Shown here: positions 14,796 through 52,000 of the stretch, piece by piece
Numbering within the stretch: position 1 is the first letter of the stretch
How the letters are laid out: each line of letters opens with the position of its first letter
NCBI RefSeq assembly: GCF_038025025.1
Contig: NW_027117354.1
Location: forward strand, 124,001 to 188,000
Source of the DNA: Phyllosticta citribraziliensis
Taxonomy: Eukaryota
Length of the DNA: 64,000 bases
Reading direction: 5' to 3'
Translations under genes and position numbers: made by a program
Notes under the pieces: model-generated
Databases searched by the model: none
Told to the model about the DNA's origin: nothing
The model's input: the letters and a program-made list of their open reading frames with translations, nothing else

Positions 14796-14981
14796 GTTGT
14801 AACGATTGTGTGTTGAAAATGAAGTACTGAATGAGTACTGCTGCAGCACAGTAGAATGTACTTCTCTTATAATTAATCCCCCCCTTCAATGCAAACGGCG
14901 ACGCGCAAGTTGCATCGCCATGTAGCCAAGACCTCAAGATGCACAAGTTTGACATGTTGACGTTCGTGGGTTCCAAACTTC

Positions 14982-30642: not shown

Positions 30643-31637
30643 ATGGAGGTATCGCAATCCACCTTTACCATCGCTGGAATACTCACTACCGTCCATGGAC
30701 TTGATCAACTCCCTCCTCAACCGTCCTCCGTGGCCTGCCTCTGGCTTCTACACCCCCGACTCCAAACAAAAGAATGCATGGCACCTCTAGCCTCTCAAGC
30801 CATTCAGGCGTGGAATTCTCGTCAAACGACGTCTGGTCTCATCGCCGTAAGCTTCGACCAGCGAAACCACGGATCGCGCAAGGTCGACGGGGTTGCCAAT
30901 GAGGATTGGCGAGGTGGAAATCCCAGACACGCTCAGGACATGTTTTCTATATATCGTACGCCCCCGCTTGATCCTACCGCGCGCGCGCCCCTGCTGATCA
31001 TACAGACGGTACTGCAACCGATACCTCGCTCCTCCTATCCTATCTCCCGGCTTACATCTCCCTAACCCCCTCTCAACACTTGGTTCTCGGCCAATCGTTG
31101 GGGGGTCATGCGACTTGGCATTGCGTGTTGCATGAACCGCGGATTTCCACCGCCATCTCCATCATCGGTTGCCCGGACTATACTGCATTGATGGAACAAC
31201 GAGCCGCGAAATCCAAGCTGCCGTCGGACCTCGTAGGGTCGCAAAACTTCCCTCAAGCCTTGGTTGAAGCGGTTGGCCAATGGGATCCCGCCGGATCTTT
31301 GATGCGCCGATTGTCGAATGCGGAGTCTCCCACGCCGATAGAAAAGGAGAGGTTGCGAGCTCACATGTGGGCCAATCTTCAGGGCAAGAGGTTGTTGAAT
31401 CTCTCTGGTGGTGCAGACAAGTTGGTTCCGTACGAGTGCGGGGAAGCCTTTTTGCAATTCTTCAAAAAGACCATCCAAGAGGACCCTCGACTTGCCTTTG
31501 AATTTGAGGACTTGGTATTTGAAGGGGTGGGCCACGAGACGACACCGAAAATGGCCGAAATCGCCGTCAATTTCATCTGCGACAGCATAGCCAGCGACAG
31601 GCCGGTGACTTCTCGAGTCAAGACTTCGAAAATATAA
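30643..31637 (+). CDS. Alpha/beta-hydrolase fold protein
   Basis: FDQRNHG, nucleophile elbow GQSLGG, Asp in GGADKLVP, His in GVGHET. Intron 30956-31005 joins the two ORFs. Confidence 0.88.
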
Positions 31638-31644
31638 TGGCTAT

Positions 31645-32952
31645 CTACTTCTGCAACAGACTCAATGCTTGACTGGCCAGTGGTGTTGGACAGTTGACTT
31701 TTCTCGCAGCAGAAATGGCCTCGGCCAAGTCTTTTCTAATCTTGGTGTCGCTCGAGGTCTGACCTTGAATCATTTCGAGTCCCTTTTCACGAAATTGGAT
31801 GCTTCCACCTGCAGCATTTGAAGCCAGTTCGTGGAATTGCAGGAGGTCGAGGTTGAGGAATCGAGCAAAATCAATGGCCTCTGCAGCGGCACAAATCAAA
31901 ACTCCACGAAGCAGCTTGAAGACTAGCTCCACTTTTGCGTCCTCTTCGACCTTGACGGATTTGACAGGCTCGGGATAGTACAGGCGAATCATGGAAGCAT
32001 CATCTAGTCGACCCATTCCTTGACCGAGAGCGACGAGATACATGCTCTCTGCAGCAGCTGAGAGAGGAGTTGGAAAGTCGAGAAGACGAGCCATGGAAGT
32101 GATGATGCCCTGATACGTCAGCCAGAATTCAAACTTCAACGACAAACTTACTGCATCTTTCAGGATAATGGTTATTGCACTCGCACCAGGCACATAGTCC
32201 TCCTCAATCAACCTCGGCACCCGATTCTCAAACATCCAACACCAGGTGTCGCTCTTGTTGACGGCTTCGTACGTCTTTTGTGGGTCCAATCCCAACCTCG
32301 CCGCAAATCCCATGGCCTCGCTGGACAACAGAATGTGTACGGCTGCGAGGACTTGGTGGACCATTTTCAAGTTGCTGCCACTTCCAACTCCACCTGGAAC
32401 GTACAAACTCTTGGGATCGGACATTTCTTCGAGCAACCACTTTGCCTTTTCGAGAGCCTCGGGTTCAGCACCGGCCATGATGGTCAGCGTACCATTGGCA
32501 GCTCGCTGGACTCCACCAGAAACGGGAGCGTCAACGAAGAAAATGTCACTCTTCCCAGACTTCAACTCCTTTGCTACCGACTCGGCATAGGAAGCAGGGA
32601 CAGTCGAGCAGAGGAGCAATGTGGCGCCCTGTGGCAGTGCTACAGAAAATCAATTCCCCAAATAGGCAGTTTACGAGTCAGACGTACCCTTTACGACACC
32701 ATTTTCTCCAAACAGCGCTTCCTGTGCTTGGTCGGCCGACGCAACCATGACGACGTAAAAGGGAGAGTCGGTAGCAGAGTCGACGAGAGATGATGCAGCT
32801 ACACCTCCGGCTGCTTGAAATCTCTCGACGCTCGCAGGGAACACGTCGAAGCCTTTGACGTGGTAGCCTTGGTTGACGAGGTTGGTGGCCATGCCGAAGC
32901 CCATGGCCCCCAGGCCGACGAAGCCAATGCTGGGCTTATTCTGCGACGCCAT
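31645..32952 (-). CDS. Beta-hydroxyacid dehydrogenase (3-hydroxyisobutyrate DH family), L-threonate dehydrogenase LtnD/YgbJ-like, with a second C-terminal helical domain
   Basis: GFVGLGAMG Rossmann motif, DAPVSGG, GSNLKMVHQVLAAVH with the catalytic Lys, and WMFENR..DY. Introns 32687-32640 and 32151-32110. Confidence 0.9.
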
Positions 32953-33407
32953 TGAAAACAAAAACACAATTGATCTATACCATCCATTTCACCAACAGCG
33001 AGAGGCGTCGTTTTGTAGCGGCGAGAAGTGCGCGGTGTTTTGTCCGGGCGGGTACCCCACAGTTTGGTCCCCCGCAGTTCCGTGACGTTGTGGAGGCGGC
33101 CTTCTCTCCGGCGACACCGTCCCCCGTTGTCGGCGTTTGTCGAGCGAACCATTGCCGATCCAACCGTTGTTTGCGACCCTCCTCCAAACAATAATGGCTC
33201 CACCTGCTTCTCGGACCATGCTCGCCAGAGCTGTGCCTCGTCCTGTTTTGTTCGGGCGAGAGCTCCGCGGGCGGGGTGCGCTATATCCTGCAGACTGAAC
33301 TCGACCACCCGCCGCTATATCCTAACCTCTGACCTCGACCATCCGCCATTCTTTGCAGACGACCTCTCAACACTCTCCTCGACCACCGCCTCCTCCAACT
33401 CGCCAAC
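32953..33407. promoter_or_regulatory. Shared divergent promoter of the dehydrogenase and aldolase genes
   Basis: 455 bp between head-to-head ATGs. Several SYGGRG (CreA-type) matches (33055-60, 33070-75, 33090-95, 33271-76) and CGG-N8/9-CCG elements. These motifs are short and the DNA is GC-rich. Confidence 0.5.
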
Positions 33408-34310
33408 ATGTCTCTCAAACTCCAAACCAACCGCGCAATCCCCCTCCTCGAAGACGCCTACACGCGCAAGTACGCCGTGCCCGCCATGTGCTGCTACAAC
33501 ACCGAAGGCATCCTCGCCACGATCCGCGCCGCCGAAGCCAAACGCTCGCCCGCCATGCTGCTCCTCTTCCCGTGGGCCATCGAGTACGCCGGCGGGCTGC
33601 TCGTCCAGCTCGCCGCCACCGCCGCCCGCGCCGCCTCCGTCCCCGTCACCCTGCACCTCGACCACGCCCAGTCGCCCGCCATGGTGCGCCGCGCCGCCGA
33701 CCTCGCGCCCGGCTTCGACAGCATCATGATCGACATGTCGCACTACGAGCGCGAGCGCAACCTCGAGCTGACGCGCGAGCTGGCGGCGTACTGCGCCGCG
33801 CGCGGCATCGCGACCGAGGCCGAGCCCGGCCGCATCGAGGGCGGCGAGGACGGCGTCGACGACACGGCGGACCTGGAGGCCGTCCTGACGACGCCGGCGG
33901 ACGCGCTCGAGTTCGCCGAGACGGGCATCGACTGGCTGGCGCCGGCCTTCGGCAACGTGCACGGCGCGTACGGGCCGCGGGGCATCGTGCTGGAGTACGA
34001 CCGCCTCGCCGCGATCCGCGAGGCCGTCGGCGACCGCGTCAAGCTGGTGCTGCACGGCGCGGACCCGATGACGGGCGAGCACTTCGGCCGGTGCGTGGCC
34101 GAGGGCGGCGTGGCCAAGGTCAACATCAACAAGGTGCTGAACGGCCCGTGTACGGCCGTGTGGGCCGAGTGGGCGGGCAAGCGGCCGCTGACGGCCGTCA
34201 TCGAGGAGGCGACGGACCGCATGCAGGCGGCGGTCGAGGGGTGCATGGATTTGTTGGGCAGCACGGGCAAGGCGGACAATATGACGGCGACGGTGCCGGG
34301 GAGGCATTAG
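33408..34310 (+). CDS. Class II (metal-dependent) ketose-bisphosphate aldolase family protein, intronless
   Basis: LHLDHA, FDSIMIDMSH, EAEPGRIEGGED, LAPAFGNVHG, VLHG and AKVNIN motifs. Confidence 0.93.
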   Translation: MSLKLQTNRAIPLLEDAYTRKYAVPAMCCYNTEGILATIRAAEAKRSPAMLLLFPWAIEYAGGLLVQLAATAARAASVPVTLHLDHAQSPAMVRRAADLAPGFDSIMIDMSHYERERNLELTRELAAYCAARGIATEAEPGRIEGGEDGVDDTADLEAVLTTPADALEFAETGIDWLAPAFGNVHGAYGPRGIVLEYDRLAAIREAVGDRVKLVLHGADPMTGEHFGRCVAEGGVAKVNINKVLNGPCTAVWAEWAGKRPLTAVIEEATDRMQAAVEGCMDLLGSTGKADNMTATVPGRH

Positions 34311-34867: not shown

Positions 34868-35684
34868 TTACATGGCCATCTCGGCCTGCAACTTCCGCAA
34901 CTCCTCTTCCTCGTCGTCTTCCTGCACTGGCGCTTTGCCCCGAACTGTCAAGTCAGCAAGAATACTCTCGACGTGTATAGATCGATACTCACTCTCTCCC
35001 TGCGCCACCGAGGGTAATCTCGACACCTTGTCGGTGACCGGCACGTTGCCCGTCTCCAACATCTTGTTGTCCAACTCCTCCTGCTGCAGCTCGGCCAGCT
35101 CCTCGTCGAGCTCGTCTTCGTCGAGCGCCTGGTTGCCCATGGGCTGCCCGATGGCTTCTGATATTTCCTCGCCAATGGCGTGCTGTTCGCGGAGTTGTTC
35201 CCTGGCCACGTTAGCAGAATCTTGGGGGAATCTGACAAGACGTACATTGTTTGGTCGACCTTGTCGATGGTCAGGCCGGCGTGGATTTGCTGCATGGCCG
35301 CTCCGGCATTCTTCATGGCGTCCAGCGTCTCCTTGTTGATATTTGCCGTCTCGATGCTGTAGATTTCTCGCTCGAGCGTCATAATCTGCGACGAGGTCTG
35401 GTCGAGCGAGTGTTCAAACTGCTTCTTGCGCCTCAAGGCCGCCTTTGCCACTATTCCAAGTCAGCCCAGCCCCACCTTCACCTATCGTATTGGGACTCAC
35501 CGTTCTTGTTTGCGCTCACGTTTTTCCGTGCTATGGCGTCTTGCTCGTCAATCTGGTGCTGCAGGTGCTTCTCCCGCTTCGACAGCATCTCCAACTGCCC
35601 GCGCAGCTGCAAAATGGCATTCTTGGGGGCATCCTTCTTCTTGGTCGCGCCGCCGCCGAACCATCCGAGGCCCCAGCCCGACAT
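34868..35684 (-). CDS. SNF7: ESCRT-III subunit Snf7/Vps32, four exons
   Basis: WFGG..KKDAPKNAILQLRGQLEMLSKREKHL, AKAALRRKK, IETANINKETL, LDEDELDEELAELQQEELD and C-terminal EELRKLQAEMAM. Three GT-AG introns. Confidence 0.95.
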
Positions 35685-36006: not shown

Positions 36007-36436
36007 ATGAATGGCCCTACACCCAGCCAGCTCATCCTCCTTTCGGACCTGAGGTCGATGGACAAGGCCACCAAGGTCCGCTTTCTGGGATGGTAAGATA
36101 CGTTCTGGCGCCCACCTCGTCCCTACTAACCCTAGCAGCGTAGAGAGATACGACGTAACGAATGGAATCCTCATCCTCAAACACGCATATCCCACCATCC
36201 TCCCACCCATCGATGCATACGTCAATGTTGAGCACGTCCTCGAGTCGGCCCACTCCACGGATTTGCAGACGGGAGCTTGGGTCAATATTGTGGGCTACGT
36301 CGGAACCAAATCGCGGGACAAAGTCCACGTGCAGGCCATCATGATGTGGGCAGCCGGACCGCTCAAGCTGGACGAATACGAAAAGGCAGTCGACGCGCGC
36401 AAACTGTGCGACATTGTCGGCCAGTACCAAGCATGA
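36007..36436 (+). CDS. TEN1: Ten1, OB-fold subunit of the CST telomere-capping complex
   Basis: Missed by the ORF track. Intron 36093-36138 (GTAAGA...CTAAC...TAGCAG). Product MNGPTPSQLILLSDL..KVRFLGCVERYDVTNGILILKH...LQTGAWVNIVGYV...VQAIMMWAAGPLKLDEYE matches the recalled fungal Ten1 pattern. Confidence 0.85.
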
Positions 36437-36486: not shown

Positions 36487-37066
36487 TTACTCCTCCAAAT
36501 GCTTCAAAAAGTTCTCCGAAAACCTCTTGACCTGAACGTACGCCTTTTCAAAGCCATCGTTGCCGCCGTAGTACGGATCCCGCACGACCTCGTCCTGCTT
36601 GCTTCGTCTGCCCTCGCCGGCAAACGCTCCAAACAGCATGACCTTGCCCATGTGGCTCGCCTCGGCCTCCTTGCCCTGCCTCTTGAGCTCCTTCTCGCGC
36701 CTCTCGCGCAGCTCCTCCAGATCCTCCAGGTTCTCCTTGTCCATGGCGAAGATGTAGTCAAAGGTGTGAAAGTCGTCGGGATAGGCAAACTTGCGCGCTC
36801 GATGGGTGTAGTCGGTGATGCCGTGGGCATTGAGGGTGGACAGGGTGCGCGAATCGGGAAGCGAGCCGACGTGGTAGGCTCCGGTGCCGCAAGAGTCGAC
36901 TTTGGCAATGGAGGGATGAGGGGGATGTTGGGTCAGGCTGCGAAAGACTCCTTCTGCCATGGTTGAGCGGCCTGACATGTTAGCCGAAGCCGCGACGAGG
37001 TTGACATGGCGTACAGATGTTGCCGAGGCAGACAAAGAGGACGGAGACGGGTTTCTTGTCTGTCAT
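36487..37066 (-). CDS. LTP1: Low-molecular-weight protein tyrosine phosphatase
   Basis: P-loop VLFVCLGNICRS rebuilt across intron 37014-36972; DSCGTGAYH, FDYIFAMD and DPYYGG motifs. Confidence 0.95.
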
Positions 37067-38431: not shown

Positions 38432-41400
38432 ATGTACAACCGCCTGGGTATGTGAATCACTCCTAGTGCACCCGCCGTCGTGTCCCAATAGCGTCGCCTA
38501 GCTCATCCCACGCCAACTTCTCAAGCCAACTGGTCATTTGCTCATCAACACAGGCCCCGCGGCAAACCGCCAGGACGAAGACGAAGAATACGGCTACGAC
38601 AACATGGACCCTCACAGGAGACCCGGCCCGCATCGCACTCCCTCGCCCGGACATCCTCTACAAACATACCAACTCCAAGACAATCCGTACTCGGCGCCTC
38701 TCGAGATTCCCATGGGACCTGGTCCTGGCCCAGGAACTCCAGGTGATCGTTTGCAAGGCCAGCCCACCGTGAGTCGACTCGAGCCCAGTCGCGACTAAGC
38801 TAATTGTCAGTTTTCGGTCGAAAACATCCAAAACACCTACGGCCACAACGAGGCATACGAGGCAGACAACAGGTACTCTCCCGCCTACGGGGTCCACGAT
38901 TATGCCATCAATCCCTCGGCGCATCACGACGCGTACGGAAACACCGCCTACAACCCCGACGATGCACAATACTATCAGGATGAAGCGGACAACAGGCCCA
39001 TGTTGCAGCCTCAAACCTCGTACCCGCCAGCGAGCGCATTGAGCCCCAGCGTTGAGAGCGCGGGCGGCTATTTTGACGACATGCCAAAACCCACACCAAG
39101 CCCTGCGCCAATCCGTAGGTGGAAGACGGTCAAGGAGGTGCAGCTGTTCAACGGCAACCTCGTTCTCGATTGTCCCATTCCTCCGCGTCTCCTCAATCAA
39201 GTCCCCCACGCTCAACCGCCCGAGCGCGACGAGTTTACCCACATGAGATACTCGGCAGCTACCTGCGATCCGTCCGAATTCTACTCGGAGCGCTTCACCC
39301 TGCGCCAGCGCCTCTTTGCAAAGCCGCGTCATACCGAACTCTTCATCGTCATTACAATGTACAACGAGGAGGACGAGCTGTTTGCGCGCACCATGATTGG
39401 CGTGATTAAAAACATCGAATTCATGAATTCGCGGACTAACAGCAAGACGTGGGGCAAGGATGCTTGGAAGAAGATTGTCGTCTGTGTTGTGGCCGACGGT
39501 CGTGCCAAGATTCACCCTAGAACGAGGGCTGTTTTGGCCGGTATGGGCGTTTACCAGGATGGAATCGCCAAGCAGACGGTCAACGGAAAAGACGTGACGG
39601 CCCACATTTACGAGGTAGGTCATTTTTGATTCTTGGCTGTGCTGGACTAACAAGACAGTACACGTCGCAAATGTCGCTTGAAATCAAAAAAGGAGTCGTC
39701 AATGTCAAAAAAGGCAACACGCCCATTCAGATGCTCTTCTGCCTCAAGGAAAAGAATCAGAAGAAAATCAACTCGCACAGATGGTTCTTCCAGGCGTTTG
39801 GCAGCGTCTTGGATCCCAACATCTGCGTCTTGATCGATGCTGGAACCAAGCCCGGCAAGGACTCCATCTACCAACTCTGGAAGGCCTTTGATCTGGAACC
39901 CATGTGCGCCGGCGCTTGTGGTGAAATCAAGGCACTACTGGCCCACGGAAAGAAGCTGCTGAACCCGCTGGTTGCGACGCAAAACTTTGAGTACAAGATG
40001 AGCAACATTCTGGACAAACCTCTCGAGTCGGCCTTTGGATTCATTTCCGTCTTGCCAGGTGCTTTCTCTGCGTACCGCTACGTGGCTCTGCAAAATGACA
40101 AGACCGGTAGTGGTCCGCTGGAAAAGTACTTTGCTGGCGAAAAGATGCACGGTGCCAATGCAGGCATCTTCACGGCCAACATGTACCTCGCCGAGGACCG
40201 TATCCTCTGTTTCGAATTGGTCGCCAAGCGCAACTGCCACTGGATCTTGCAATACGTCAAATCTGCCAATGGCGAGACTGATGTGCCGACTGAAATGGCC
40301 GACTTCATCATGCAGCGTCGTCGTTGGCTCAACGGTTCCTTCTTCGCCGCCATTTACGCCATTGCTCACGGACTGCAAATCTTCCGCAGTGACCACTCCT
40401 TCATGCGCAAGATGATGTTCTTGGTCGAGTTTACCTACCAGTCCATCAACATGATTTTCGCCTGGTTTGCTCTCGGCAACTTTTTCCTGGTCTTCCGCAT
40501 CCTCACCCAGTCGCTCGGCAACAAGGACTTGCTTGGAAAGGTGGGCAACATTCTGGCTGCAGTCTTTGAATGGGCCTACATTGCCATTGTCATCACTTGT
40601 TTCGTCCTGGCTCTCGGAAATCGTCCTCAAGGCTCCAACAAGCTGTACATGACCATGGTGTACTTTTGGGCCCTGATCATGACCTACCTCATGTTTGCCA
40701 CCATCTACATCACGGTCATCTCGGTGCAAAAGGAGCTCAAGGAGGGCTTCTCGGTCGCCAAGCTCTTCACCAACACCGTCTTCTTCACGCTCATCGTCTC
40801 CATGGCGTCGACCTACCTGCTCTATTTCGTGGCGTCCTTCATCTTCCTCGATCCCTGGCACATGTTCACGTCCTTCTTCCAGTACCTCCTCATGACGCCC
40901 ACGTACATCAACATCCTCAACGTCTACGCCTTCTGCAACACGCACGACATCACGTGGGGCACCAAGGGCGACGACAAGCCCGAGAAGCTGCCCTCGGTCA
41001 CGACCAAGCCCGGCGGCAAGGTCGACGTGGCCGCCCCCACCGACGACCACGACCTCAACACGCAGTACGAGCAGGAGCTCCGCGTCTTTGCGACCAAGTA
41101 CGTCGAGCCCAAGAAGAACCCCTCGGCCGCCGACAAGCAGGAGGACTACTACAAGGGCTTCCGCTCCGTCGTCGTGCTCGTGTGGATGTTCTGCAACCTG
41201 GCGCTGTGCGCCGTCGTCCTCGTCACCGCCGGCACCGACGCCAGTCTCAGCACGGGCGGCTCCTCGTCGTCGTCCAGCGGCAGCAGCAGCGGTAGCGGGA
41301 ACCAAAAGCGCCAGACCGACTCTGGCAGCAGTGGCAGCGGCAGCAGCAGCGGTGACAGTTCGAGTGATTCTAGCTCCTCCGGTGGCACGGAGAAGGAGAA

Positions 41401-41567
41401 GCGCGCCAAGATTTACATGATGGTCGTCCTGTGGAGCGTGGCGGGCCTCAGCGCTTTCCGCTTTATCGGCGCCGTGTGGTTTTTGATTGTGCGCATGGTG
41501 AGTTTTCTACCTGACCCCTTTGCGTGTGTGGATTTGGCTGACGACGCGACAGTTCCGCGGTGTGTAA
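38432..41567 (+). CDS. chsC: Chitin synthase class I (A. nidulans ChsC type), five exons
   Basis: N-terminus [77 protein letters not shown]-terminal transmembrane helices. Last exon FRGV* at 41553-41567. Confidence 0.95.
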
Positions 41568-41811
41568 GAGAGCGGAGACAAAAGAGCGCGGAGCGCTGCT
41601 TAATTGACGAAGCTGACGCTGTAGCTGGTCAAGTGCTCGTGGTTCATTGCATACTAGATTCCCTCTTCCCTTTTTTTCTCCCCCCTTCCTGTCTTGCTTG
41701 CCTTTGCTTTCCCTTTCTTCCAATCCTTTACTTACGTCCTCACGTCTGCCCTTCCTCGCCCTCCCTCCCTCCTTTTTTCTCTTCCTTCTCTTGTTTCTTG
41801 TTATGCTATGT

Positions 41812-41816
<5 letters not shown>

Positions 41817-42199: not shown

Positions 42200-45100
42200 T
42201 CACCCACCGCCACCATCATCGCCGCCTCGACCATCGTTATCGCCTTCGACTTTGACCGCCGCCGCCGCCGCCGCCGCCGCAGTCCCTGTGCCTTTCTCAA
42301 GTCCTCTCCTGCCGCCAGTCTTCGCTCTCCTTGTCTGCGTCTGTTTCCCGCTACCCTGCCTCTCCCCCGCAGCCTCGGTACTGATGCCAACGTCCGCCTC
42401 TCCCTCTGCGTCTGCGTCTGCGTCTGCGTCTGCATCCTCCCCGGACGCACCACCAGCGGCAGCACTCGCGGCAGCAGCAGCATCAAACCACTCCATGCCC
42501 ACCCCACCCCCAGCGCCCAGCATATCCGGCAGCGGCAAATACTGCAGCCACGGGACGCCGACGCCGGCGAAGCCAATACCACCTCCCACACCTCCATTGC
42601 CACCACCACTAGCGGTACCAGCAGAAGCAGAAGCAGCGTTGCCCGCAGCAGCAGCGGGACCAGCGCCACCATGCACGAACTCGCCGTTAGTACCCCACAC
42701 GCCGATTCCGAGGGCGCTCATATCAATATCCTGACTCTCGATCATGAGCGAGTCGCCAAAGAAGTACGATCCAGCGCCCGACGGCGAAGAAGCCGCGCGG
42801 TGGTGGTGGTGCTGCGATTGCGGCTGCGGCTGCGGAGACGACGAGGACGGCGCGCGCTGCTGGTGGAGCGGAGGCTGCGCGAAAACGTTGTGCTGGGGGT
42901 GGGGGTGCGGGTGGTGATGGGCGTGGGCGGAGGGGGAGAAGGGGGCGGTAGGCGACTGGTGCGCGCCATTATGTCGAGGCGGCGAGGCGCCGGGGAAGGG
43001 CGAGTGCAGGTTCAGCAGGAGGTCGGCGTCGGAGACGAGGGGCGTGGCGGCGGCGTGGTGGTCTGCGAGGTGGAAAGGCTGCGGCTGGCGGTTCGAGGGC
43101 GGCGGGTGCATTCCTGGTGGTGGGCTGAACATGGCGTGCGTGTTTGCTGCGACGGGTGCTTGACTTTGGCTCATCAGCCGCGACGACGACGACTGGCTGG
43201 CCATGACAGACGAGATGGAGCCCATGTCTTGCGAGCGGCGGTGTTCGCGGTTTTCCGTTGGATACAGGACCGCGAGGCTGGTGCTGGGCGAGTTCATGGT
43301 GCCCGTAAGAGACCAGCCGATTGCTGTGTCTGTCAGTTGCTGACTACACTTTACTGGACGGAGAACAAACCTTGACCTTCCATTGGCGACCCAGCTTGAT
43401 TTGCCTTTTCTCCAGTCGGCGCAACATACGCGCCCCACGACAACTTGCGCCGCCAGCCAGGCGTATTGAAAGAAGGTTCAGGCCGCGGCACCTCCAGCGC
43501 CGACTCCATTTCCTCCCGCGTATACAACAGCGGATCCAACACGCCCTTTGCCTTTTGGTCGAGAACGGTCAAGATATATTTTGTGCCGGCCCAATACTGC
43601 TCCAACGATTGCAGCGCCCGGTAGCAGCGTTGGTAGTTTGCATTGGCCGCGCTGGCAAGAAGCGAATGCCTCATTTGCTTGTCAGTCTTGCCGCGCGCTC
43701 CATTATACTCGGGCGTTGGAGGATCCGGCGGCGAGGCATGTCTGGAATGCGGGTTGGATGACGCCGACTGCAGTGCACTCTCCTTGAGAAAAGCACACGC
43801 AGCAATGTAAATGGGTTGACTGCAAAGTTAGCTATTGCAATACTGCTCGGATTGCCGCGACCCACCTCGTAAAAGGATTCCCAAACCCCGCCCTATTCAC
43901 GTCGGCCAGCTCGGCAAAAGCCAAAATATCCGCAATAGTCTTTGCAGACGACATGCTCAACTCATGGCTGTTTGGGAGCAGCTGCTGAATCTCGCCCTCA
44001 AACGTCTTGAGCAACGTCGGCTCATGCAACAAAACAATGAGCGTGTGGAACCAAAAATGCAGCAGGATAAAGTTCGTGCCTTGCCCCGTGCGCAGGTAAT
44101 GCTGGAAGTTCATGACGCTAAAGTGCAGCCGCGACGACAGGTTCTGGTAGATTTCGGTCAACAGGCTTTCCATCGAGCCCAGCTGCTTGATGACTTCGGG
44201 CGTGACGTGCGAGACGGCCTTGATGTCGTTGAGAATGTCCGTCACGCGTCCATACAGGTGGATGACGCGAATCAGGGCGGGAAGAGGGAGCGGATCTCCT
44301 GACCGATCAATCGTGTCCAGCGACGGAAAGGCCAGTTCAATGTCCTTGTCCCTGATGGACACGGGCCGGCCTGTGCCGGACGAGACGACGCGATCCAGAA
44401 AAAAGACTGACCAGAAAGTGTCGACTCGTTCTCGCTCGACAGCGCGCAGCTCCTCAATGGCTTGCAAATCTTTTGGAGTCTCTGGAGAGGCGCCCGTCGT
44501 CTCACGCTCTCTGCGTTTTTTAGACACACTCGCAGGCGTCTGGCCGACTCGACCCTCGTACTTGAGGCCCTGCAACGTCTGCATGCCCAAATCTTGCGCC
44601 ATGCGAATGGCAATGCCAAGATACATCCACAAACCAGAATCGCGGCTAGCGCCGAATTCGTCATAAGCCAACAGCAGAGCAGCCTGGACGACGGCAATGC
44701 TTGGACACGCAAAGGTATCTGCAATGGCCGACTTGGCCCTCTGAGCAAAGGCTTGACCTCGTTCAGACGGCGCACAATCGTCTCCGCGACCCCTGGTCAA
44801 CAAAGGATCGCTGGAAAACCTGGCAGCGAGAGCGCAGACGGCATCCACAAGAATGGCGTCAACCTGCTTTTCTTCCAAATCGCGCATGAAGCGCTCCTCC
44901 TGCAGAAACGGAAAGTTGCAGCCGAGATGCCTGAAAAAGGTCTTGCAGAGTTGTGTAATCAACGGCGGCGGCGGGACGGAAGAAGTGTCGTACATGGGGA
45001 TCTCTGCAGGGGAAGGCGTCTCGGTGGGTTGCTGGGGGGTTGCACCGCGTATGGAGAGGGGAGGCGGCGATGAGAGGCCTTGAAAAGGTTGGCATTCGAC

Positions 45101-45617
45101 TTGCACGATTGAACGAGACGTACCATCCGTGGATGTGCCCGTGGCGCTATGCTGTTTGCCCTTGACCTTGACAACCATTTGTTTGAAGCCCGGCATGATG
45201 GCGGTTGGGCCAAAGTAGCGAAAGTAGGGCATGCGATTGCGGATGCTGAGGCTCAAGGCGTGTCCTAATCTGTTAGCACGTGGAATCACAACCTGGAGAT
45301 GTCTCACTCGAACTACCGTCATCCTCGGGACTTGTATCCAAGTTTGGGTCAATGTTGGAGGGTGGCGCGGGTGGCTGCGTCTGCTTTGGCGTAGGAGGAG
45401 GTTTGGGAGTTTCTTCCTGGCCGTAGCCGCCGCAGCTGTGGTTGTTTTTGAGACAGGTTTCGCACGAGGGGCGTTCGCCAGAGCAGCGAGTTTTGCGACG
45501 GCGACATGTCAGGCAGGCCGAGTTGATTCGCCGGCGTTTGGCATAGGGACCGTCGGTGTTTGTGACGAAGCGAATGGCCTTTGGTTGCGGCAAGGGAGAA
45601 AAGGTGTCGTGATCCAT
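42200..45617 (-). CDS. Zn(II)2Cys6 transcription factor with fungal-specific TF (middle homology) domain, multi-exon
   Basis: ACLTCRRRKTRCSGERPSCETCLKNNHSC binuclear cluster, RMPYFRYFGPTAIMPGFKQMVV, WMYLGIAIRMAQDLG, ERVDTFWSVFFLDRVVSSGTGRP, and a low-complexity C-terminus. The 3' exon structure is approximate. Confidence 0.92.
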
Positions 45618-46233
45618 GCCGAGCGAGCTTGAGGAGACCGGACGGAAGCAAAGTCTGCCGCGCGCGGCGGACCGGCGGCGCAGGGCAGGGCAGACTAGGA
45701 GGGCGAAAATGGAAGGAGCCGCGAGGGTCGACGATGGGGTTGTGGGGGTGGGAGTGGGTTCAGCGGCGACAGAGTCATTGTAGGTCAATCAGGGCCGTGG
45801 TGGGCTTGAGCGCGACGTAGAGGGATCATGGAGCGCGGCGTGGCGAGGGCATTCCTGGCCACGGCGGTGGGTGTCGTGAGGTCCCGTCGGGTGGGTGCGG
45901 TGGAGAGCTGCGTTCGTCCGGCTCGTGTCCCGCCCCCAGACAGACAATGACAGTCAATGCCATGCATGGAAACTTCCATGAATCATCCGACCGGATCATG
46001 CATGTCCATCCAATGTCAGCGGCCGTGGTACGACAGATGGTGTGCGTCGGCCAGGGCAGTCGTGGTGTCTACATGTACCTACTGTCACTACTGGCTACCC
46101 CAGCGTGGAGTCCCCGGCCGCTGGACCCCGCGCCTCGAAACGACGTCTCCGACCCGATGGCCCAAGCCCAAGCCCAAGCCCAAGGCGGTCAAGCCAACCT
46201 GCACTACACGACACACAATTCCACCTCAACACC

Positions 46234-47333
46234 ATGGAAATGTCCACGTCCCTCCTTCGCTGCTCACGCCGTCTCCGGCCCGCCGTGCGCTGCCTGCACT
46301 CGTCGCGTCCCGTCCCCGCAAACCCTCTCCCCCATCCCACCACCCCCGGTCCTCCCCCCGGGCCCCCCAAGCCCGCCGCGTCCACGCCCCAGGAACGCGT
46401 CGCCCGCAAGCAACAGCAAGCCGAGCTGGTCAAAAAGGGCCAGGAGCTCCGAAAGCCCACCTCGGCCCTCAAGAAGCGCTTCTGGAGCAACGTCCACGTC
46501 AAGCAAACCCCAGGTGCGTTTTTTCGTTGTCGGCCTGAAAATTGGTCTGACGCCTGGGCTCAGATGGCCTCCAAATCCTCCTCGACTCCCGCCCCGTGCG
46601 CACCCCGTCCAAGGACGTCCTGACCGTCCCCGCAAACAAGCCCCAGCTCGCCGCTGCCATTGCCCTCGAGTGGGACTTGCTCGTCAATGCCCAGCAGGCC
46701 CTCAAACAGCACTACATCCCGCTGACCTCGTTGACGTCACGCGCGCTGGACATACAATTGGCGGATGAAAATGGCGACAAGAGCCTTCGCGACGGCATTG
46801 TGAGCATGGTTCTGCGCTACTTGAGCACCGACACGCTGCTGTGCTGGGTGCCCGAAAAAGACGTGCACGACCCGGCCGGCGTCAACGACAAGGGCGAGAG
46901 CCTGCGCCAGGTCCAGATGCGCACCGCGCAGCCCATCATCCGTTTCCTCGCCACCCAGCTGTGGCCCGGCGTCGAAATCAAGCCCATCCTCGAGACCGAC
47001 AGCATCATGCCCGTCGAGCAGCCGCAAAACACGGTCGAGGTCATCCGCGGGTGGGCCTCGACGCTGCCCGCGTACGAGCTTGCTGGCTTGGAGCGCGGCG
47101 TCTTGGCCAGCAAGAGCTTGCTCGTGGCCAGCCGGCTGTTGGTCGATTGGAGTCCGCAATTCGCCCATTTGCGGGCTGCGTCTCGCTTTGGCATTGAGGA
47201 GGCGGCGGAGGCCAGCACGCTCGAGGTCAGCTGGCAGACGGGCATGTGGGGAGAGGTGGAAGACACGCATGATGTAGACAAGGAAGACGTTCGACGGCAG
47301 CTGGGAAGCGTCGTCATCTTGATTAGCGGGTAG
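46234..47333 (+). CDS. ATP12: Atp12, mitochondrial F1-ATPase assembly chaperone
   Basis: Arg/Ser-rich mitochondrial presequence, LKKRFW, LLDSRPVRTP, AIALEWD, PLTSLTSRALD, YLSTDTLLCW and WGEVEDTHDVD. Intron 46514-46563. Confidence 0.95.
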
Positions 47334-47378: not shown

Positions 47379-48395
47379 CTAGGCATAAGGCGGATCCGCG
47401 CCGCGAAGTCGGGGGATGCGATAGGTGAGATGCTTTCCCAATGCCTTGACGACGACGGGATTGTACCGCTCCAGCTTGCCGTCGCGCTGCTCAAACGCAT
47501 CCAGCAGCGTCGCCAGCCTGACGGCCAGCTGCACGGCCTCCAAGTTGGCCTCAACCAGGCCCCTCACACCCTCACTCACGCCCTCCCAAACCTCATCCCA
47601 GAAGGCCCTCTCGGCCTGCTCAAATTCGGGCGGCATGTAAAACTCGCCCTCAGAGTACTCGCCCGCCAGCGTATGGATGCGGCCAAAAGCCATGCCGAAT
47701 GGCAGCGGCGTCGACAGCTCCCAATCAATGAGGCCCGAGACCTCGCAGTGCTCGTCCAGCATCATGTTGACCTCGTTCAGGTCGAAGTGCGTCACCCAGA
47801 GCGGCAGCACCTTGAGCGCATCGAGGCTGGCCAGCAGATGGCGCGTCGTGTCGTCAAACTGGCGAATCTGCGCGTCGCTGCTCGACAGGAGCAGCTCCAG
47901 GTGCGGGCGCAGCGTGTCGTCGACTACTTTTGCTGTGTCGCCTTCGACGAGACCGCGGGAGAGTACGCGGCCTAGCGATTTGTTGGCCGTCACCAGCTTG
48001 TTTGGAGGATCGGGGCCCCGCATGGCGTCAAGCCACATCTTGCCCGGCATGCACGTCATCCGATACGCAAAAATGGCATTGTCGTCGAGCTCCTTGTCGT
48101 GGAGGAGTTCAATCTCGGGGACCACGGACCCAAGCGTGCGGCGGGCGAGGTGAAAGCATTCGAGGTCCAGTGCCTCGAGGCGGAACTGTATCACGACCTG
48201 GTCTCCGTCTTCAAGCGTGACGATGACGGTGCGACTGAAGAAGCCTTGGAAGGGGCCCTGGAGCTGTGGAGCGTTGGCTTTGATGGTGGCCAGGCCTGTG
48301 CAGAGGGTGGCCAGCTCGCGGGCCTTTTTGGCTTGTTTTGTGGGCGTGTTGAGGCATTTGGGGAGGTCCTTGTTGGATTCGATGGGCAGGGACAT
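47379..48395 (-). CDS. Aminoglycoside phosphotransferase (APH)/kinase-like family protein
   Basis: QGFFSRT loop, Brenner-type THFDLNEVNMML and GLIDWE motifs; intronless. Confidence 0.8.
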   Translation of the reverse strand: MSLPIESNKDLPKCLNTPTKQAKKARELATLCTGLATIKANAPQLQGPFQGFFSRTVIVTLEDGDQVVIQFRLEALDLECFHLARRTLGSVVPEIELLHDKELDDNAIFAYRMTCMPGKMWLDAMRGPDPPNKLVTANKSLGRVLSRGLVEGDTAKVVDDTLRPHLELLLSSSDAQIRQFDDTTRHLLASLDALKVLPLWVTHFDLNEVNMMLDEHCEVSGLIDWELSTPLPFGMAFGRIHTLAGEYSEGEFYMPPEFEQAERAFWDEVWEGVSEGVRGLVEANLEAVQLAVRLATLLDAFEQRDGKLERYNPVVVKALGKHLTYRIPRLRGADPPYA

Positions 48396-49089
48396 GGTGA
48401 GATGGTGGAGAGCTGTCTCTGAGTTGTGTGTAGAGACGTCCGTCAAGTCATTCCTATCTATGGTATGTGGGCTGAATCTGTGCCGTATGCAGGCCTTGTG
48501 TCACAAAGAATGTCGTCCATGTCCGCCGAGGTCGCTGGGATTCTGTAAATCATTAGCACGTAGAAAGTGAGTGAGCAGGCACCGTCTGCCCACATAGGCA
48601 ATCGACTTGGATTGATCATTCTGTTTGTGGACGTCTGGAAGCGTGTCTGGTGGTGTTGAAGCCCGGCTGGGGTGCGATGGGAGAGAAAGAGAAGGAGATG
48701 GCGTATAATGCATCCAGGGTGTCACAGTGTCGCCAGATATCGCCAGTGCCGGAATAAAGAAAACGAAAGGAAGCGGAACAGGCTGATGTAGTCCGCAAAT
48801 CCGATGGTCGACGGCTCGACGCGTCGACTTGGCTCCCGCTGGCCCGGGCGCTAGCTGTGAGCTGGCCGCTGCAACGGACCACGAGGGCAGGGCAGCATTC
48901 CAACAGCAAACCCATTCCAGACACCCGCCTTGCCTCACCACACCCTCCGCGTGCAGACTAGACGCTTCGCCTCCTTCGCTGCCGCCTTGTGCAAGCGTCG
49001 GCGTTGCGCGCCTGTCCGGCCTCCCGTCGTTGGACTACTCACAAACCCCTGTCAAGCCGCTGACCTACTTTCAACATAAGCTACGTGAC

Positions 49090-52000
49090 ATGGACGAGCA
49101 AGTCTACCGTACTCCGCCCCCCAAACCTTGCCTTGCTGACGTCGTATAGCAACGGCCATAGGAGGACAAAGTCGGCCCAGGTCAAGTCTCTGCTCCAACG
49201 CGTCAGCTCAAAGCAAGACGTCACCGACGAACTCAACAGTCCCACACCCTCGACCCGCAACAGCATCCAAATTCCTCGCCATCGTCCCCATCTTTCTACA
49301 ACCATGTCGAATTCCGCCGCTTCGGACAGTCTCTCTCCATCGCAACCGAGTCATTCGCCTTTGTCGCCCACTGCCTCCAAGGGCGCCTCGATCGAACAGT
49401 CGGTGCGATTGTTCCGCATCTTCGAAGCCCTGCGAAACGGAGACACGGCCGCCATTTCAAAGGCCATCCGCGACGAAGCCGCCACATCGCCTGGGCCTAG
49501 ACAAAGCACCACCTCGATATCTTCATCCACCAGTCGCCTCGAAGGCACCACCATACTACACCTCGCCATACAATGCGCCGAGATTCCCGTCATCGAATTC
49601 GTCCTGTCGCATGCTGGCGCCGGAGTCGACGTGAATGGAAGAGACAAGGATGGCAATACTCCGCTACATCTGGCAGCCCAGTTGGGTAGAGCGCCCGTCG
49701 TGCGCATGTTGTTGGATCAAAAAGACGTCAACGACTCGCTCACAAACTACTACGCCCAGACTCCTCTCGACCTCGCCCGGACACCCGAAATCTTTCAAAT
49801 GCTGCAACTCTCGCGCTCCATCTTCATCGAGACGAATGTAAAAAAGATTCAAGACTTGGTGGAATCGGGCGACTACAAAGCGTTGGAGGTTTTGTTGAGT
49901 GACAACCGCATCAAGACGACGCTGGACGTTAATGGTGGGGAATTGACCAAGGACCCCGACACCGTTGCTACGGGCGGAACCCTGCTCCATGAGGCGGCCT
50001 GCAAGAAGGACATGCAACTCATCCAACTGCTCCTCCTCAACGGCGCAGATCCATTTCGTCGCGATCGCAAGGGAAAACTTCCTCAGGATGTCACCAAGGA
50101 CGACAAGACCAAGGCCATTCTCAAAAAGTCGCCCGCCGCCGCAGCCGCACAGCGTGGCATACAGGAAAAAACCATCCTTGGAGGTGCCGTCGCTGCTTCT
50201 GGAGTTGCCACGGCCGAGGTTGCAATTGGAGCAAAAGAAGGACGAGAAATGAAGGGTTACTTGAAAAAGTGGACCAATTATACCGGTGGATACAAGTTGA
50301 GGTGGTTTGTATTGGAGGATGGTGTCTTGAGTTATTACAAACACCAAGGTGAGTCTCCTGGATTCTTCGCTCTCCATTTCTGACGACAGTAGATGACGCT
50401 GGATCCGCTTGTCGTGGTGCCATCAACATGAGAATCGCCAAGTTGCACATGGACCCCCAAGACAAACTACGCTTCGAAATTCATGGCAAGTCTTCGGTCA
50501 AGTACCATCTCAAGGCAAACCACCAAGTCGAAGCCAAGCGCTGGTTTTGGGCACTCAACAATGCAATCCAATGGGCCAAGGATGAGGCGCGGGAAGAGGA
50601 AAAGAGACAGGTCCGAGAAAATGAAGCGTTGCGGCAGGCCAAGGAACAAGCATCCCCGCAGGCCGACGCACAGAGCAGTGGAAGCTCGAAGTTAAACAGA
50701 CGTAAGTCGGCCCAAGTCGGATTCGGCAGGACTAACGGCAGTAGAATCTCTTCTCAGCCCCTCGGCTGCCAACCTTGGAATCCCGCTGTCTACCTCGCGA
50801 ACCGGAGCAAGTAGCGGCGAGGAGGATGAAACTCCAAATAGCGCTTACGATGCTAGCCTTGTTGGTGAAGGTAGCCGACAGGAGAGCGTTTCCGGTACCA
50901 ACCATATTGGCGATTTGGACGACGATGATTATGGCGACGACAGCAGTCATGAACAGCAAAATCCTTCAGCCACCAAGGATGCTTTCAACATTACAGCACA
51001 GTCGGCCAAACTTCAGCTCGACTTGTTGAGTCGGGTGTCTGACGCTCTGCAGTCGGAGAGAAACAAAAATCCCTCCATGGCCATTTCAGACCCCGTCGCA
51101 GTGCAGGCCATTGCGTCGTACGAGTCGGCCGTCAGTAATCTCAAGGGTCTCGTTGGAGACTTGCTCCGCATTGCCCGAGATCGCGATGCTTATTGGCAAT
51201 ACCGTTTGGACCGCGAAGCCAATGTCCGCCGCATGTGGGAGGAGAGCATGGCCAAGGTTGCGCGAGAACAGGAGGAGTTGGAGAGCAGGATTGGCCAGTC
51301 GGAAGAAAAAAGAAAACGCACCAAAAAGGCGCTGCGAGATGCGTTGCAGGGAGTGCAGATAGAGGCTGCCGCTGAAAAGAGTGACGCCATCGCCTCGGTC
51401 ATTTCTGAAAAGGACGAGGAGGAAGAAAGACCCAAGACTAGCGGCACCGTAGCAAAACCCAACCCGCTTGCCGTCTTGTCAGACTCTGAATCCGACGACG
51501 AGGAGTTCTTCGACGCCATTCAGGAGGGAGAGGTTGAGGTTGTCGACACGTTCGATGACGCAGAACAACAGGTCGAGGAACCGGCCGAGCAAGACAAGAG
51601 GTTGGCCAAGGCCAAGGAGATTGAGCCTGCTTTTGTCGGCTACGAGGATCCTCCTCGCTCCAAGCTGAAGCTGGATGAAGACAATCGGCCGCGCATTTCG
51701 CTTTGGGTGAGTTCAATGATCTGGTTATTAGAACGCGCTAACGAATCAGGGCATCCTCAAATCCATGATTGGCAAGGACATGACAAAAATGACGCTGCCC
51801 GTCTCCTTCAACGAGCCAACGTCTCTCCTCCAGCGCGTGGCAGAAGACATGGAGTATACCGACCTACTCGACACGGCTGCGGAGCGCGCCGACTCGACCG
51901 AACGCATGGTCTACGTTGCCGCATTCGCTGCAAGCGAGTACGCCTCGACGATTGGTCGCGTGGCCAAACCCTTCAACCCCCTGCTGGGCGAGACGTTTGA

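Follow-up and report, generated by a model that had tools for sequence, protein, structure and literature searches.

The window, a 64-kb stretch of Phyllosticta citribraziliensis DNA, contains two genes that lie head to head across 455 bp: a spliced gene for an LtnD-type dehydrogenase and a single-exon gene for a class II aldolase-fold protein (Table 1). This divergent dehydrogenase/aldolase pair had been described in a first-pass annotation and is confirmed here; coordinates and layout proved right, and the motifs quoted at the time are present, i.e. KMVHQVLAAVH and WMFENR...DY in the dehydrogenase and VLHGAD in the aldolase. Both dehydrogenase introns are of the GT..AG type, and the spliced product aligns gapless from end to end with an annotated 405-aa Phyllosticta protein (P0132) at 96.8% identity.

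Table 1. Features of the dehydrogenase/aldolase locus, in positions of the window.
Feature	Position	Strand	Remarks
LtnD-type NAD-dependent hydroxy-acid (L-threonate-like, putative) dehydrogenase gene	31645..32952	-	405 aa; PF03446 and PF14833; best model ThreonDh NF043037
Dehydrogenase exons	32688-32952, 32152-32639, 31645-32109	-	ATG at 32952, stop 31645-31647
Dehydrogenase intron 1	32640..32687	-	48 nt, GTACGT..CTGTAG; from sequence and RNA-contig joint
Dehydrogenase intron 2	32110..32151	-	42 nt, in frame, GTAAGT..TATCAG; from sequence and RNA-contig joint
Dehydrogenase C-terminal extension	31648..31990 (bounds approximate)	-	second all-helical NAD_binding_11 copy
Divergent intergenic region, presumably shared promoter	32953..33407	.	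455 bp, ATG to ATG
Class II (Zn) aldolase-fold gene, DUF1537-associated (2-OtnC / LTD C-terminal) clade	33408..34310	+	300 aa, single exon; PF01116, 269.5 bits

RNA contigs from three RNA-Seq runs of one plant-metagenome study cover both genes with both introns removed; they derive from a relative that is about 94% identical. The joint of intron 2 (32109>32153) is found in RNA contigs of X6, X8 and X9, and so is that of intron 1 (32637>32688), which is absent from X1. Contig depth is unsuited to ranking expression. Between 32962 and 33350 the spacer is without RNA-contig cover while both genes are covered, which is a weak hint only. The spacer holds sites of the CGG-N8-CCG type. No significant promoter motif shared between loci emerged: CGGAGAG occurs in five of seven non-redundant divergent spacers, and some 7-mer reaches at least five regions in 60 of 300 shuffles. 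The two genes may be co-regulated from the 455-bp spacer that they share.

Conservation of the gene pair in fungi

The pair is widespread, with members in plant-associated Dothideomycetes, Aspergillus, Penicillium, dermatophytes and Coccidioides. Among metagenome loci of the HG[AS]DP orthologue group of aldolases, 16 were informative, and in 14 of them the dehydrogenase gene lies 0.3-2.7 kb from the aldolase gene, either divergent or in tandem; beside paralogous aldolases it was found in none of 26 metagenome loci. Adjacent or near-adjacent locus tags occur in three species (TRV_07644/45, FE257_006658/59, AJ80_06644/46), and for 23 named species both proteins are recorded on a contig of the same size. 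The pairing on which the first-pass reading of the locus was built is conserved across Dothideomycetes and Eurotiomycetes. Because it recurs in other fungal classes and in two orientations, and is specific to one aldolase orthologue group, we consider it to go beyond chance.

Family relationships of the two proteins

Public annotations name the proteins of the pair 'fructose-bisphosphate aldolase' and '3-hydroxyisobutyrate dehydrogenase', and the crystal structure 3PM6, which is about 70% identical to the window aldolase (415.5 bits, residues 5-292), is titled 'putative fructose-bisphosphate aldolase'. Taken literally, these names describe an ordinary fructose- or tagatose-bisphosphate aldolase beside an ordinary 3-hydroxyisobutyrate dehydrogenase (HIBADH) of valine catabolism, without a functional link. 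We find this hardly credible, given the model scores of both proteins, the absence of the phosphate motifs from the aldolase, and a linkage that is kept in two orientations across fungal classes and restricted to one orthologue group.

The dehydrogenase shows the NAD_binding_2 (PF03446) and NAD_binding_11 (PF14833) architecture. ThreonDh (NF043037) is its top NCBIfam model, with 222.6 and 66.8 bits on the two pieces of the window protein, and is also the best model on the larger piece. Six full-length fungal orthologues reach 301-333 bits on ThreonDh (318.6 for P0132, 300.9-332.8 for the other five), versus 166-186 bits for HIBADH, whose cut-off is 291.6, and 146-180 bits for tartronate-semialdehyde reductase. 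The lead over the next model is about 130-160 bits in all six cases; the ThreonDh equivalog cut-off of 350 bits is not reached by any of the six, which stay just under it. The motif K..HQ.LA..H recurs in 93 of the 120 best fungal dehydrogenase matches. On these scores the earlier view that the enzyme is LtnD-like and not HIBADH-like holds; it appears to belong to the LtnD type, and NAD+-dependent oxidation of L-threonate is predicted. Furthermore, PF14833 matches in two stretches of the window dehydrogenase, and a second PF14833-like domain is a feature of the fungal proteins: the extra exon of one orthologue (L001:5027-5617) on its own matches positions 6-121 of the 122 of PF14833, and the P0134 extension is similar to the helical parts of LtnD domains (E 5e-7 to 3e-6).

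The aldolase falls below the cut-offs of all 20 NCBIfam aldolase models (71-179 bits versus 216-558); its best model, TIGR00167, gives 178.6 bits against a cut-off of 215.6. We searched 1.84 billion representative proteins exhaustively with this protein as the query. Beyond the fungal clade, some of the top full-length matches are 1046-1393 aa long and carry the aldolase as their C-terminal part. A Pfam scan of 18 such long matches found DUF1537 (PF07005 and/or PF17042) in 12, six of which also carry LtnD domains. Among 11 longer matches there was no fungal DUF1537 fusion, the sole DUF1537 carrier being the JGI protein P0131 (34% identity). The nearest non-fungal relatives of both proteins of the pair are domains of the same fusions of LtnD, DUF1537 kinase and aldolase (40-44% identity); for the dehydrogenase, these are the LtnD domains of P0287, P0288, P0294 and P0295 (second LtnD domain), aligned over some 290-305 aa. 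The analogy to the plant fusion that had been drawn earlier is exact: the dehydrogenase and the aldolase each share 40-44% identity with their counterpart domains in LTD-type fusions.

A quick maximum-likelihood tree of 79 aldolase rows with SH-aLRT support places 11 of 11 DUF1537-fused rows and 18 of 18 fungal-clade rows on one side of a branch with moderate support (84). Rows labelled GatY and FBA are found on the opposite side, in a group of 37 rows with a support of 99. For P0252-P0304, 'fungal' denotes grouping with named fungal proteins and shared motifs only. The earlier suggestion that the aldolase is neither a glycolytic nor a tagatose enzyme is borne out by this grouping, by the model scores and by the motifs described below.

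The window aldolase keeps the zinc ligands H86, H185 and H216, the catalytic Asp (D85) and N239; the YaSqiA counterparts of D85/H86, H185 and H216 are D82/H83, H180 and H208. The phosphate site has changed. In YaSqiA, Ser211 and Thr233 hold the substrate phosphate, roles that are known from complexes with SFP and DHAP (PMC10665668); the corresponding residues of the window aldolase are Asp219 and Lys242, the latter being Arg in 3PM6. The replacement of Ser by Asp and of Thr by Lys or Arg holds throughout the dehydrogenase-linked orthologue group. Accordingly, the window protein has HGADP and NINK and is without HGxSG and NxxT, and its best 120 matches contain LHGADP in 117 cases, LHGSDP in three, HG[AG]SG in none and N[IV]NK in 108. 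Other pocket positions are remodelled as well (CCYN for FNVYN, DMSH for DGS). The DUF1537-fused aldolases have HG[AV]SG in all 12 with this region aligned and NVNT in all 11 with the second motif aligned; more generally, all non-fungal rows with the motif region aligned keep at least HG..[SG] and N..[TS], and nearly all of them HGxSG and NxxT.

Such remodelling at several conserved positions (CCYN, DMSH, HGADP, NINK) could mean that the pair acts on a different hydroxy-acid or sugar acid, for example some other C4-C6 aldonate or a compound from secondary metabolism, in which case the homology to LtnD and LTD would reflect ancestry and not the present substrate. The dehydrogenase scores under the equivalog cut-off, and its additional helical domain is specific to fungi; both would fit such a shift. 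So would the other contexts of paralogous fungal aldolases of the same clade, which gene models fuse to a terpene synthase, a methyltransferase, a Zn2Cys6 factor and an MFS transporter. However, ThreonDh leads every other model by the margin given above, the two partners have the same fusion proteins as relatives, and the catalytic zinc ligands, Asp85 and Asn239 are intact. We consider a different substrate unlikely.

The kinase step and the proposed pathway

As noted in the first-pass annotation, a DUF1537 kinase is not visible in the window: tblastn gave no match at E 1e-5, and at the same threshold none of 185 ORFs of at least 120 aa matched PF07005 or PF17042 in a Pfam scan. In 46 fungal-type metagenome loci, there is no DUF1537 kinase within up to 10 kb, and in seven annotated fungal loci no kinase of any family is conserved beside the pair. 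The only kinase-like match of the window, an APH-family ORF at 47382-48500, lies 13 kb off; we set it aside as a pathway kinase because neither APH nor another kinase family occurs beside the pair in the seven annotated loci. Ascomycota seem to possess stand-alone DUF1537 kinases: an ESM Atlas cluster comprises 1216 stand-alone DUF1537 proteins of about 492 aa, of which 73% are eukaryotic and Ascomycota are the commonest phylum (an unaligned cluster, and as such a lead only).

The 25 closest prokaryotic aldolase loci (38-44% identity) include seven non-cyanobacterial ones, all with DUF1537 directly upstream, although the match in one of them (L098) is partial, covering 53 aa. The 18 cyanobacterial loci contain no DUF1537 within 8 kb; in five of five such genomes, PF07005 is located on another contig, and an unlinked kinase therefore has a precedent. 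Among the next 55 prokaryotic loci (32-36% identity), none has DUF1537 directly upstream of the aldolase. LtnD was not found beside the closest bacterial aldolases (L080-L104, tblastn E 1e-8), and the best ThreonDh matches in the five cyanobacterial genomes reach only 110-192 bits.

Sequence comparison shows the two proteins to be homologues of the enzymes that open and close the three-step pathway for L-threonate, a four-carbon acid sugar, of bacteria and of plant LTD. Our preferred explanation, to which we assign a probability of about one half, is that it represents a conserved fungal catabolic pair, a split relative of this pathway with an unlinked kinase. The split-pathway reading is well supported by homology because of the ThreonDh ranking, the shared fusion relatives and the conserved pairing. 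Of the earlier proposal of a split, co-regulated fungal version, the split relationship is supported by the homology of both proteins to LTD-type fusions and by the conserved pairing; co-regulation may follow from the layout described above, the RNA contigs showing only that both genes are transcribed, and the threonate may come from the breakdown of host ascorbate.

We infer the substrate and chemistry of the pair, as well as an unlinked kinase in the genome, along the following lines. The LtnD-type NAD-dependent dehydrogenase would oxidise C2 of L-threonate, or of a closely related acid such as D-erythronate, and so produce a 2-oxo-tetronate. Phosphorylation at C4 would fall to a DUF1537 kinase whose gene lies elsewhere in the genome, and the Zn-dependent, 2-OtnC-type aldolase-fold enzyme would form a metal-bound enediolate and release CO2, yielding dihydroxyacetone phosphate for glycolysis. 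A bacterial route of this kind, LtnD > 2-OtnK (DUF1537) > 2-OtnC (F_bP_aldolase family), was reported by Guo et al. 2024, as cited in the available passages of PMC12540250. The earlier proposal needs one correction: the aldolase calls for no special pleading, a route with a decarboxylase of the F_bP_aldolase family being already published for bacteria (PMC12540250, same passages). In plants, L-threonate is a major product of ascorbate breakdown. Its catabolism was worked out for bacteria in 2016 and 2024, whereas the link to a plant gene dates only from 2025 (PMC12540250). The literature searched describes no fungal threonate route.

More difficult to interpret is the altered phosphate pocket (Ser to Asp, Thr to Lys or Arg), which led us to consider a variant without a kinase. 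Here, the aldolase-fold enzyme would isomerise and decarboxylate the unphosphorylated 2-oxo-tetronate to dihydroxyacetone, the ordinary fungal dihydroxyacetone kinase would then phosphorylate it, and the pathway would have no dedicated enzymes beyond the pair. The dehydrogenase-linked orthologues have exchanged the two side chains that bind phosphate, with HG[AG]SG in none of the 120 best matches, and nearly all non-fungal rows with the motif region aligned retain the motifs HGxSG and NxxT; no kinase of any family is conserved by the pair in the seven annotated loci or in the window, and through rearrangements these two genes alone remain linked. However, we know of no enzyme of the class II FBP-aldolase family that takes an unphosphorylated substrate. 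Stand-alone DUF1537 kinases appear to be common in Ascomycota, unlinked kinases are normal in the cyanobacteria that possess homologues, and phosphate ligands provided by backbone amides are not readable from sequence. Moreover, the Lys or Arg at the former Thr site could itself bind phosphate, as does the lysine of E. coli FBP aldolase that binds the 1-phosphate (PMC10665668). On balance, we consider it doubtful that the 2-oxo-tetronate is processed in unphosphorylated form; that the threonate pathway of Pezizomycotina has shrunk to two dedicated enzymes, with the phosphate pocket lost and no DUF1537 kinase needed, seems to us rather improbable.

If the split pathway with an unlinked kinase is correct, two families would be renamed that hundreds of fungal genomes now list under 'fructose-bisphosphate aldolase' and '3-hydroxyisobutyrate dehydrogenase', and the orphan crystal structure 3PM6 would receive a function. 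The pair would also provide a soluble two-protein system for a chemistry beyond reach with the insoluble plant fusion; recombinant expression of LTD failed, according to the available passages of PMC12540250. The altered pocket sharpens the question whether the fungal aldolase clade still acts on a phosphorylated substrate. Should the kinase prove dispensable, the fungal enzyme would extend the class II FBP-aldolase family to a non-phosphorylated substrate for the first time, and ascorbate-derived threonate would have its first fungal route.

Comparison with known systems

The Arabidopsis protein LTD (AT1G18270; L-threonate metabolizing domains) combines the same dehydrogenase and aldolase families as the fungal pair, and in planta it is required for threonate catabolism and for L-threonate dehydrogenase activity (PMC12540250, available passages). 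An LTD-type representative, P0295 (1393 aa), shows 40% identity to the fungal aldolase and, in its second LtnD domain, 42-43% identity to the fungal dehydrogenase. Plant LTD is a single polypeptide with two LtnD units, a DUF1537 kinase and an aldolase, whereas the fungus has two genes on opposite strands and no linked kinase; its dehydrogenase consists of one LtnD unit plus the extra helical domain. P0295 keeps the phosphate motifs HGASG and NVNT, both of which are missing from the fungal aldolase.

The three-step bacterial pathway of Arthrobacter sp. ZBG10 and cyanobacteria (Guo et al. 2024, as cited in the passages of PMC12540250) resembles the fungal pair in its LtnD-type dehydrogenase and in a last enzyme of the F_bP_aldolase family. 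Cyanobacteria and Chloroflexota supply the closest prokaryotic homologues of the aldolase (38-44% identity); outside the cyanobacteria, these are encoded directly after a DUF1537 gene. In contrast, the fungal neighbourhood is without a kinase and the phosphate pocket is changed; the likeness to 2-OtnC is drawn at the level of the family. With the four-step YgbJ-K-L-M pathway of E. coli (LtnD, OtnK, OtnC, OtnI; Zhang et al. 2016, as cited in passages of PMC12540250 and PMC12506659), the fungal locus shares the dehydrogenase step, which corresponds to the best model ThreonDh. The E. coli OtnC, however, belongs to Aldolase_II (PF00596) and not to PF01116, and the isomerase OtnI is needed in addition (PMC12540250, same passages); neither occurs in the fungal pair.

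Among known structures, 3PM6 is an orthologue of the fungal aldolase with the same HGADP motif and Arg at the position of Lys242. Zinc is shown in its active site according to a figure legend; it is a structural-genomics entry that was solved as a phasing case study, and the available passages of its paper assign no substrate or pathway. YaSqiA (8Q57/8Q59), AgaY (1GVF) and the Thermus aquaticus FBA (1RV8) share the fold, the three histidine zinc ligands, Asp82 and Asn230 with the fungal protein, at 113-123 bits. In the class II aldolases for sulfofructose phosphate, tagatose bisphosphate and fructose bisphosphate, Ser211 and Thr233 hold the DHAP phosphate, whereas the fungal protein has Asp219 and Lys242; in the tree, too, the fungal clade is set apart from these three groups of enzymes.

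Gene models and transcription of the divergent pair

The dehydrogenase and the aldolase lie head to head with 455 bp between their start codons, as the first-pass annotation had described, and every motif that it quoted for the two proteins is found in the sequence. That reading had passed through the second dehydrogenase intron because this intron is in frame; the spliced product aligns without gaps, over residues 1-405, to an annotated Phyllosticta dehydrogenase (P0132) at 96.8% identity. The window is fungal. In protein searches, the best named match of the dehydrogenase piece is a Phyllosticta protein (92% identity), and the top named aldolase match comes from P. citriasiana (93%), with P. 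capitalensis at 91%.

RNA evidence comes from one plant-metagenome study, of which three RNA-Seq runs contain contigs from a relative about 94% identical. Both dehydrogenase splice joints occur in these contigs, which span the aldolase between about 33351 and 34313 and have zero coverage at 32962-33350 of the divergent spacer. The spliced and covering contigs therefore confirm the gene models, and both genes are transcribed, as judged from contig presence in this relative. Run X1 holds a full-length contig that lacks the splice joints; X1 is probably DNA rather than RNA, and the assembly may derive from it. The dehydrogenase RNA contigs extend into the 3' end of the convergent gene, to 31400, the edge of the examined stretch. 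Further contigs (1.4-3.2 kb), from DNA-like and RNA runs alike, match the window solely at the 36 nt of 33713-33748, with 3 differences; this segment codes for the conserved GFDSIMIDMSHY motif. An expressed paralogue of the aldolase, or more than one, is probably present in the organism.

CGGAGAG, often inside CGG-N7/8-CCG, occurs in five of seven non-redundant divergent promoters (window 32953-33407 and the metagenome loci L006, L010, L013 and L015). As a shared promoter motif it is not significant: some 7-mer hits at least five regions in 60 of 300 shuffles. The remaining genes across 13640-57775 are housekeeping-like, and no transporter near the pair is found among the window genes.

Features of the window and of related metagenome loci (L-numbers)
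Feature	Coordinates	Strand	Details
Zn-dependent alcohol dehydrogenase	13640-14885
Phospholipase D	25775-30385
Gene convergent with dehydrogenase	30643-31637	+	by eye resembles alpha/beta hydrolase; no Pfam hit at E 1e-5
LtnD-like dehydrogenase	ATG at 32952, stop 31645-31647	-	two introns, 405 aa spliced
Dehydrogenase intron 1	32640-32687	-	48 nt
Dehydrogenase intron 2	32110-32151	-	42 nt, in frame
Second NAD_binding_11 copy	31648-31990	-
Second NAD_binding_11 copy	L001:5027-5617, L007:8949-9497, L009:9031-9627
Class II aldolase-fold gene	33408-34310	+	single exon, 300 aa
Snf7	34871-35460
Ten1	36053-36433
Low-molecular-weight phosphotyrosine phosphatase	36490-37062
Chitin synthase	38799-41812
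Zn2Cys6 factor	43835-45788
ATP12	46551-47330
APH-family phosphotransferase	47382-48500
Ankyrin/PH/oxysterol-binding protein	49064-52892
Open frame	53729-57775		1349 aa; DUF3433 sole match
Open frame	60373-63999	-	1209 aa, running past window end; no Pfam match at E 1e-5
DUF1537, then at once aldolase	L047:604-2775, L048:663-2844		aldolase 34-37% identical to fungal one

Conservation of the pairing and protein families

The pairing is kept in other fungi. Dehydrogenase and aldolase stand on contigs of identical listed size in 23 named dothideomycete and eurotiomycete species; pairs carry the adjacent locus tags TRV_07644/07645 in Trichophyton verrucosum, FE257_006659/006658 in Aspergillus nanangensis and the near-adjacent AJ80_06644/06646 in Polytolypa hystricis. 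Our metagenome sample comprises 46 loci with fungal-type aldolases, 19 of which have the HG[AS]DP motif. At 14 of these 19 the dehydrogenase lies 0.3-2.7 kb away, in divergent (L004-L006, L010, L011, L013-L016, L020) or tandem order (L001, L007-L009), counts that include the near-duplicates L004/L005, L007/L008, L013/L014 and L015/L016. It is absent at L029 and L037 despite at least 4 kb of flank, and the contigs of L002, L003 and L012 are too short to judge; L032 has only 2 bp of upstream sequence. None of the remaining 26 loci (HGTDG-like or motif unread) has a dehydrogenase beside the aldolase; 17 of them have 10 kb on both sides. Other neighbours are variable (DUF4419, aldo-keto reductase, MFS transporter, rhodanese domain, RTA1). 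That precisely this pair stays linked even where its order is inverted speaks for a functional unit.

Paralogous fungal aldolases with HGTDG or HGTN motifs (52-66% identity; among L018-L046 and proteins P0127-P0130 and P0253-P0278) never adjoin the dehydrogenase. Some are fused in public gene models to a terpene synthase, methyltransferase, Zn2Cys6 factor or MFS transporter, which hints at other cluster contexts.

The dehydrogenase had been proposed to be LtnD-like rather than HIBADH-like, and the scores of six full-length fungal orthologues on NCBIfam models agree: the L-threonate dehydrogenase equivalog gives them 301-333 bits, just short of its cut-off of 350, and the HIBADH model 166-186 (cut-off 291.6); tartronate-semialdehyde reductase models reach 146-180 and sulfolactaldehyde reductase 117-148. 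The window pieces give the same ranking, which clearly points to the LtnD side of the superfamily, formally just under the bacterial threshold. The closest solved relative is 3G0O (162.7 bits; remaining structures at most 110), which we take to be the Salmonella YgbJ protein. PF01116 spans the full length of the window aldolase, and all 20 NCBIfam aldolase models stay under their cut-offs for it. Set against this ranking and the conserved linkage, a chance adjacency of an ordinary FBP aldolase and a HIBADH is highly improbable. A crystal structure from Coccidioides immitis, 3PM6, represents an aldolase orthologue (415.5 bits); the accessible part of its publication treats it as a phasing case study only, with zinc in the active site and without an assigned function.

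The proposed unlinked kinase and the prokaryotic relatives

We consider it most likely, with a probability of about one half, that the pair represents a split, fungal form related to the three-step threonate/erythronate pathway, with a DUF1537 kinase encoded at an unlinked site. As the first reading had stated, no such kinase is visible in the window, either by tblastn or by Pfam on 185 ORFs of at least 120 aa, and none is found in the 46 fungal metagenome loci. An ESM Atlas cluster of 1216 stand-alone DUF1537 proteins (about 492 aa) is 73% eukaryotic, with Ascomycota most frequent; an unlinked kinase in the fungus is therefore plausible. A kinase-free variant ending in dihydroxyacetone, which we rank next, appears unlikely.

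In a prokaryote scan with one genome per species, the best 80 loci by similarity to the fungal aldolase were retained. Of these, 18 cyanobacterial loci and seven from Chloroflexota or Desulfobacteraceae make up the closest 25 (38-44% identity). A DUF1537 match ends directly before the aldolase gene in all seven of the latter (the match at L098 is partial, 53 aa only) and in none of the other 55 (32-36%; Firmicutes and others). No kinase lies within 8 kb of the 18 cyanobacterial aldolases; a full DUF1537 protein is on a separate contig in all five cyanobacterial genomes examined. Cyanobacteria have the three-step pathway according to PMC12540250, citing Guo et al. 2024; no word in PMC12540250 begins with 'fung'. 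Across the result listings of our full-text literature search, neither a threonate pathway in fungi nor a function for fungal DUF1537 is described.

The phosphate site and the LTD-type fusions

In the class II sulfofructose-phosphate aldolase YaSqiA, ligand roles are known from complexes with substrate and DHAP (PMC10665668, accessible part): the zinc ligands are His83, His180 and His208, the C3 hydroxyl is bound by Asp82 and Asn230, and Ser211 and Thr233 side chains, backbone amides and a sodium ion hold the phosphate. A HMMER alignment with YaSqiA shows D85/H86, H185, H216 and N239 retained in the window aldolase, with Ser211 replaced by Asp219 and Thr233 by Lys242; 3PM6 has Arg at the latter position. 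Among the best 120 fungal hits, LHGADP occurs in 117, LHGSDP in 3, N[IV]NK in 108 and HG[AG]SG in none, whereas all DUF1537-fused relatives whose region aligned keep HG[AV]SG and NVNT. From these residues, two readings fit: the phosphate may now be held differently, with Lys/Arg in place of the cation, or the substrate may lack a phosphate ester. Action of the pair on a diverged substrate is possible, though doubtful.

The split-pathway reading draws on the likeness to plant fusions, which the first-pass annotation had raised. Searched exhaustively with HMMER, 1.84 billion representatives yielded 79 aldolase hits at E 1e-30 or better; beyond the fungal clade, long proteins whose C-terminal domain is the aldolase are among the best full-length hits. 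Of 18 long hits scanned with Pfam, five (1046-1104 aa) have the layout LtnD, DUF1537, aldolase, P0295 (1393 aa) has that of plant LTD with two LtnD units, six combine DUF1537 (whole or cut) with aldolase, and six show a terpene synthase, SDR, PfkB or RPE domain or no second family. One DUF1537-carrying fusion, P0131, has the same layout as the metagenome contigs L047 and L048. As a lead only, the ESM Atlas neighbours of fusion P0287 are Streptophyta clusters (1349-1379 aa) that carry the automatic names 'L-threonate dehydrogenase' and 'Ketose-bisphosphate aldolase class-II family protein'.

In a quick maximum-likelihood tree of 79 aldolase domains, the 18 fungal-clade rows group together (SH-aLRT 99), and a branch with SH-aLRT 84 has them and all 11 DUF1537-fused rows on the same side; the rows reaching NCBIfam GatY or FBA cut-offs fall on the opposite side, in a 37-row group (SH-aLRT 99). 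Because the tree is a quick one, its support for joining the fungal clade and the fused aldolases is moderate. Both fungal proteins resemble domains of the same fusions: over about 290-305 residues, the LtnD domains of P0287, P0288 and P0294 and the second one of P0295 share 40-44% identity with the dehydrogenase, and the aldolase domains of these four proteins share 40-42% with the aldolase. The fungal dehydrogenases differ in carrying, after the normal NAD_binding_11-like helical domain, a full second copy at the C-terminus, which is missing from the LtnD domains of LTD-type fusions; this copy may be what is left of a second LtnD unit such as plant LTD has.
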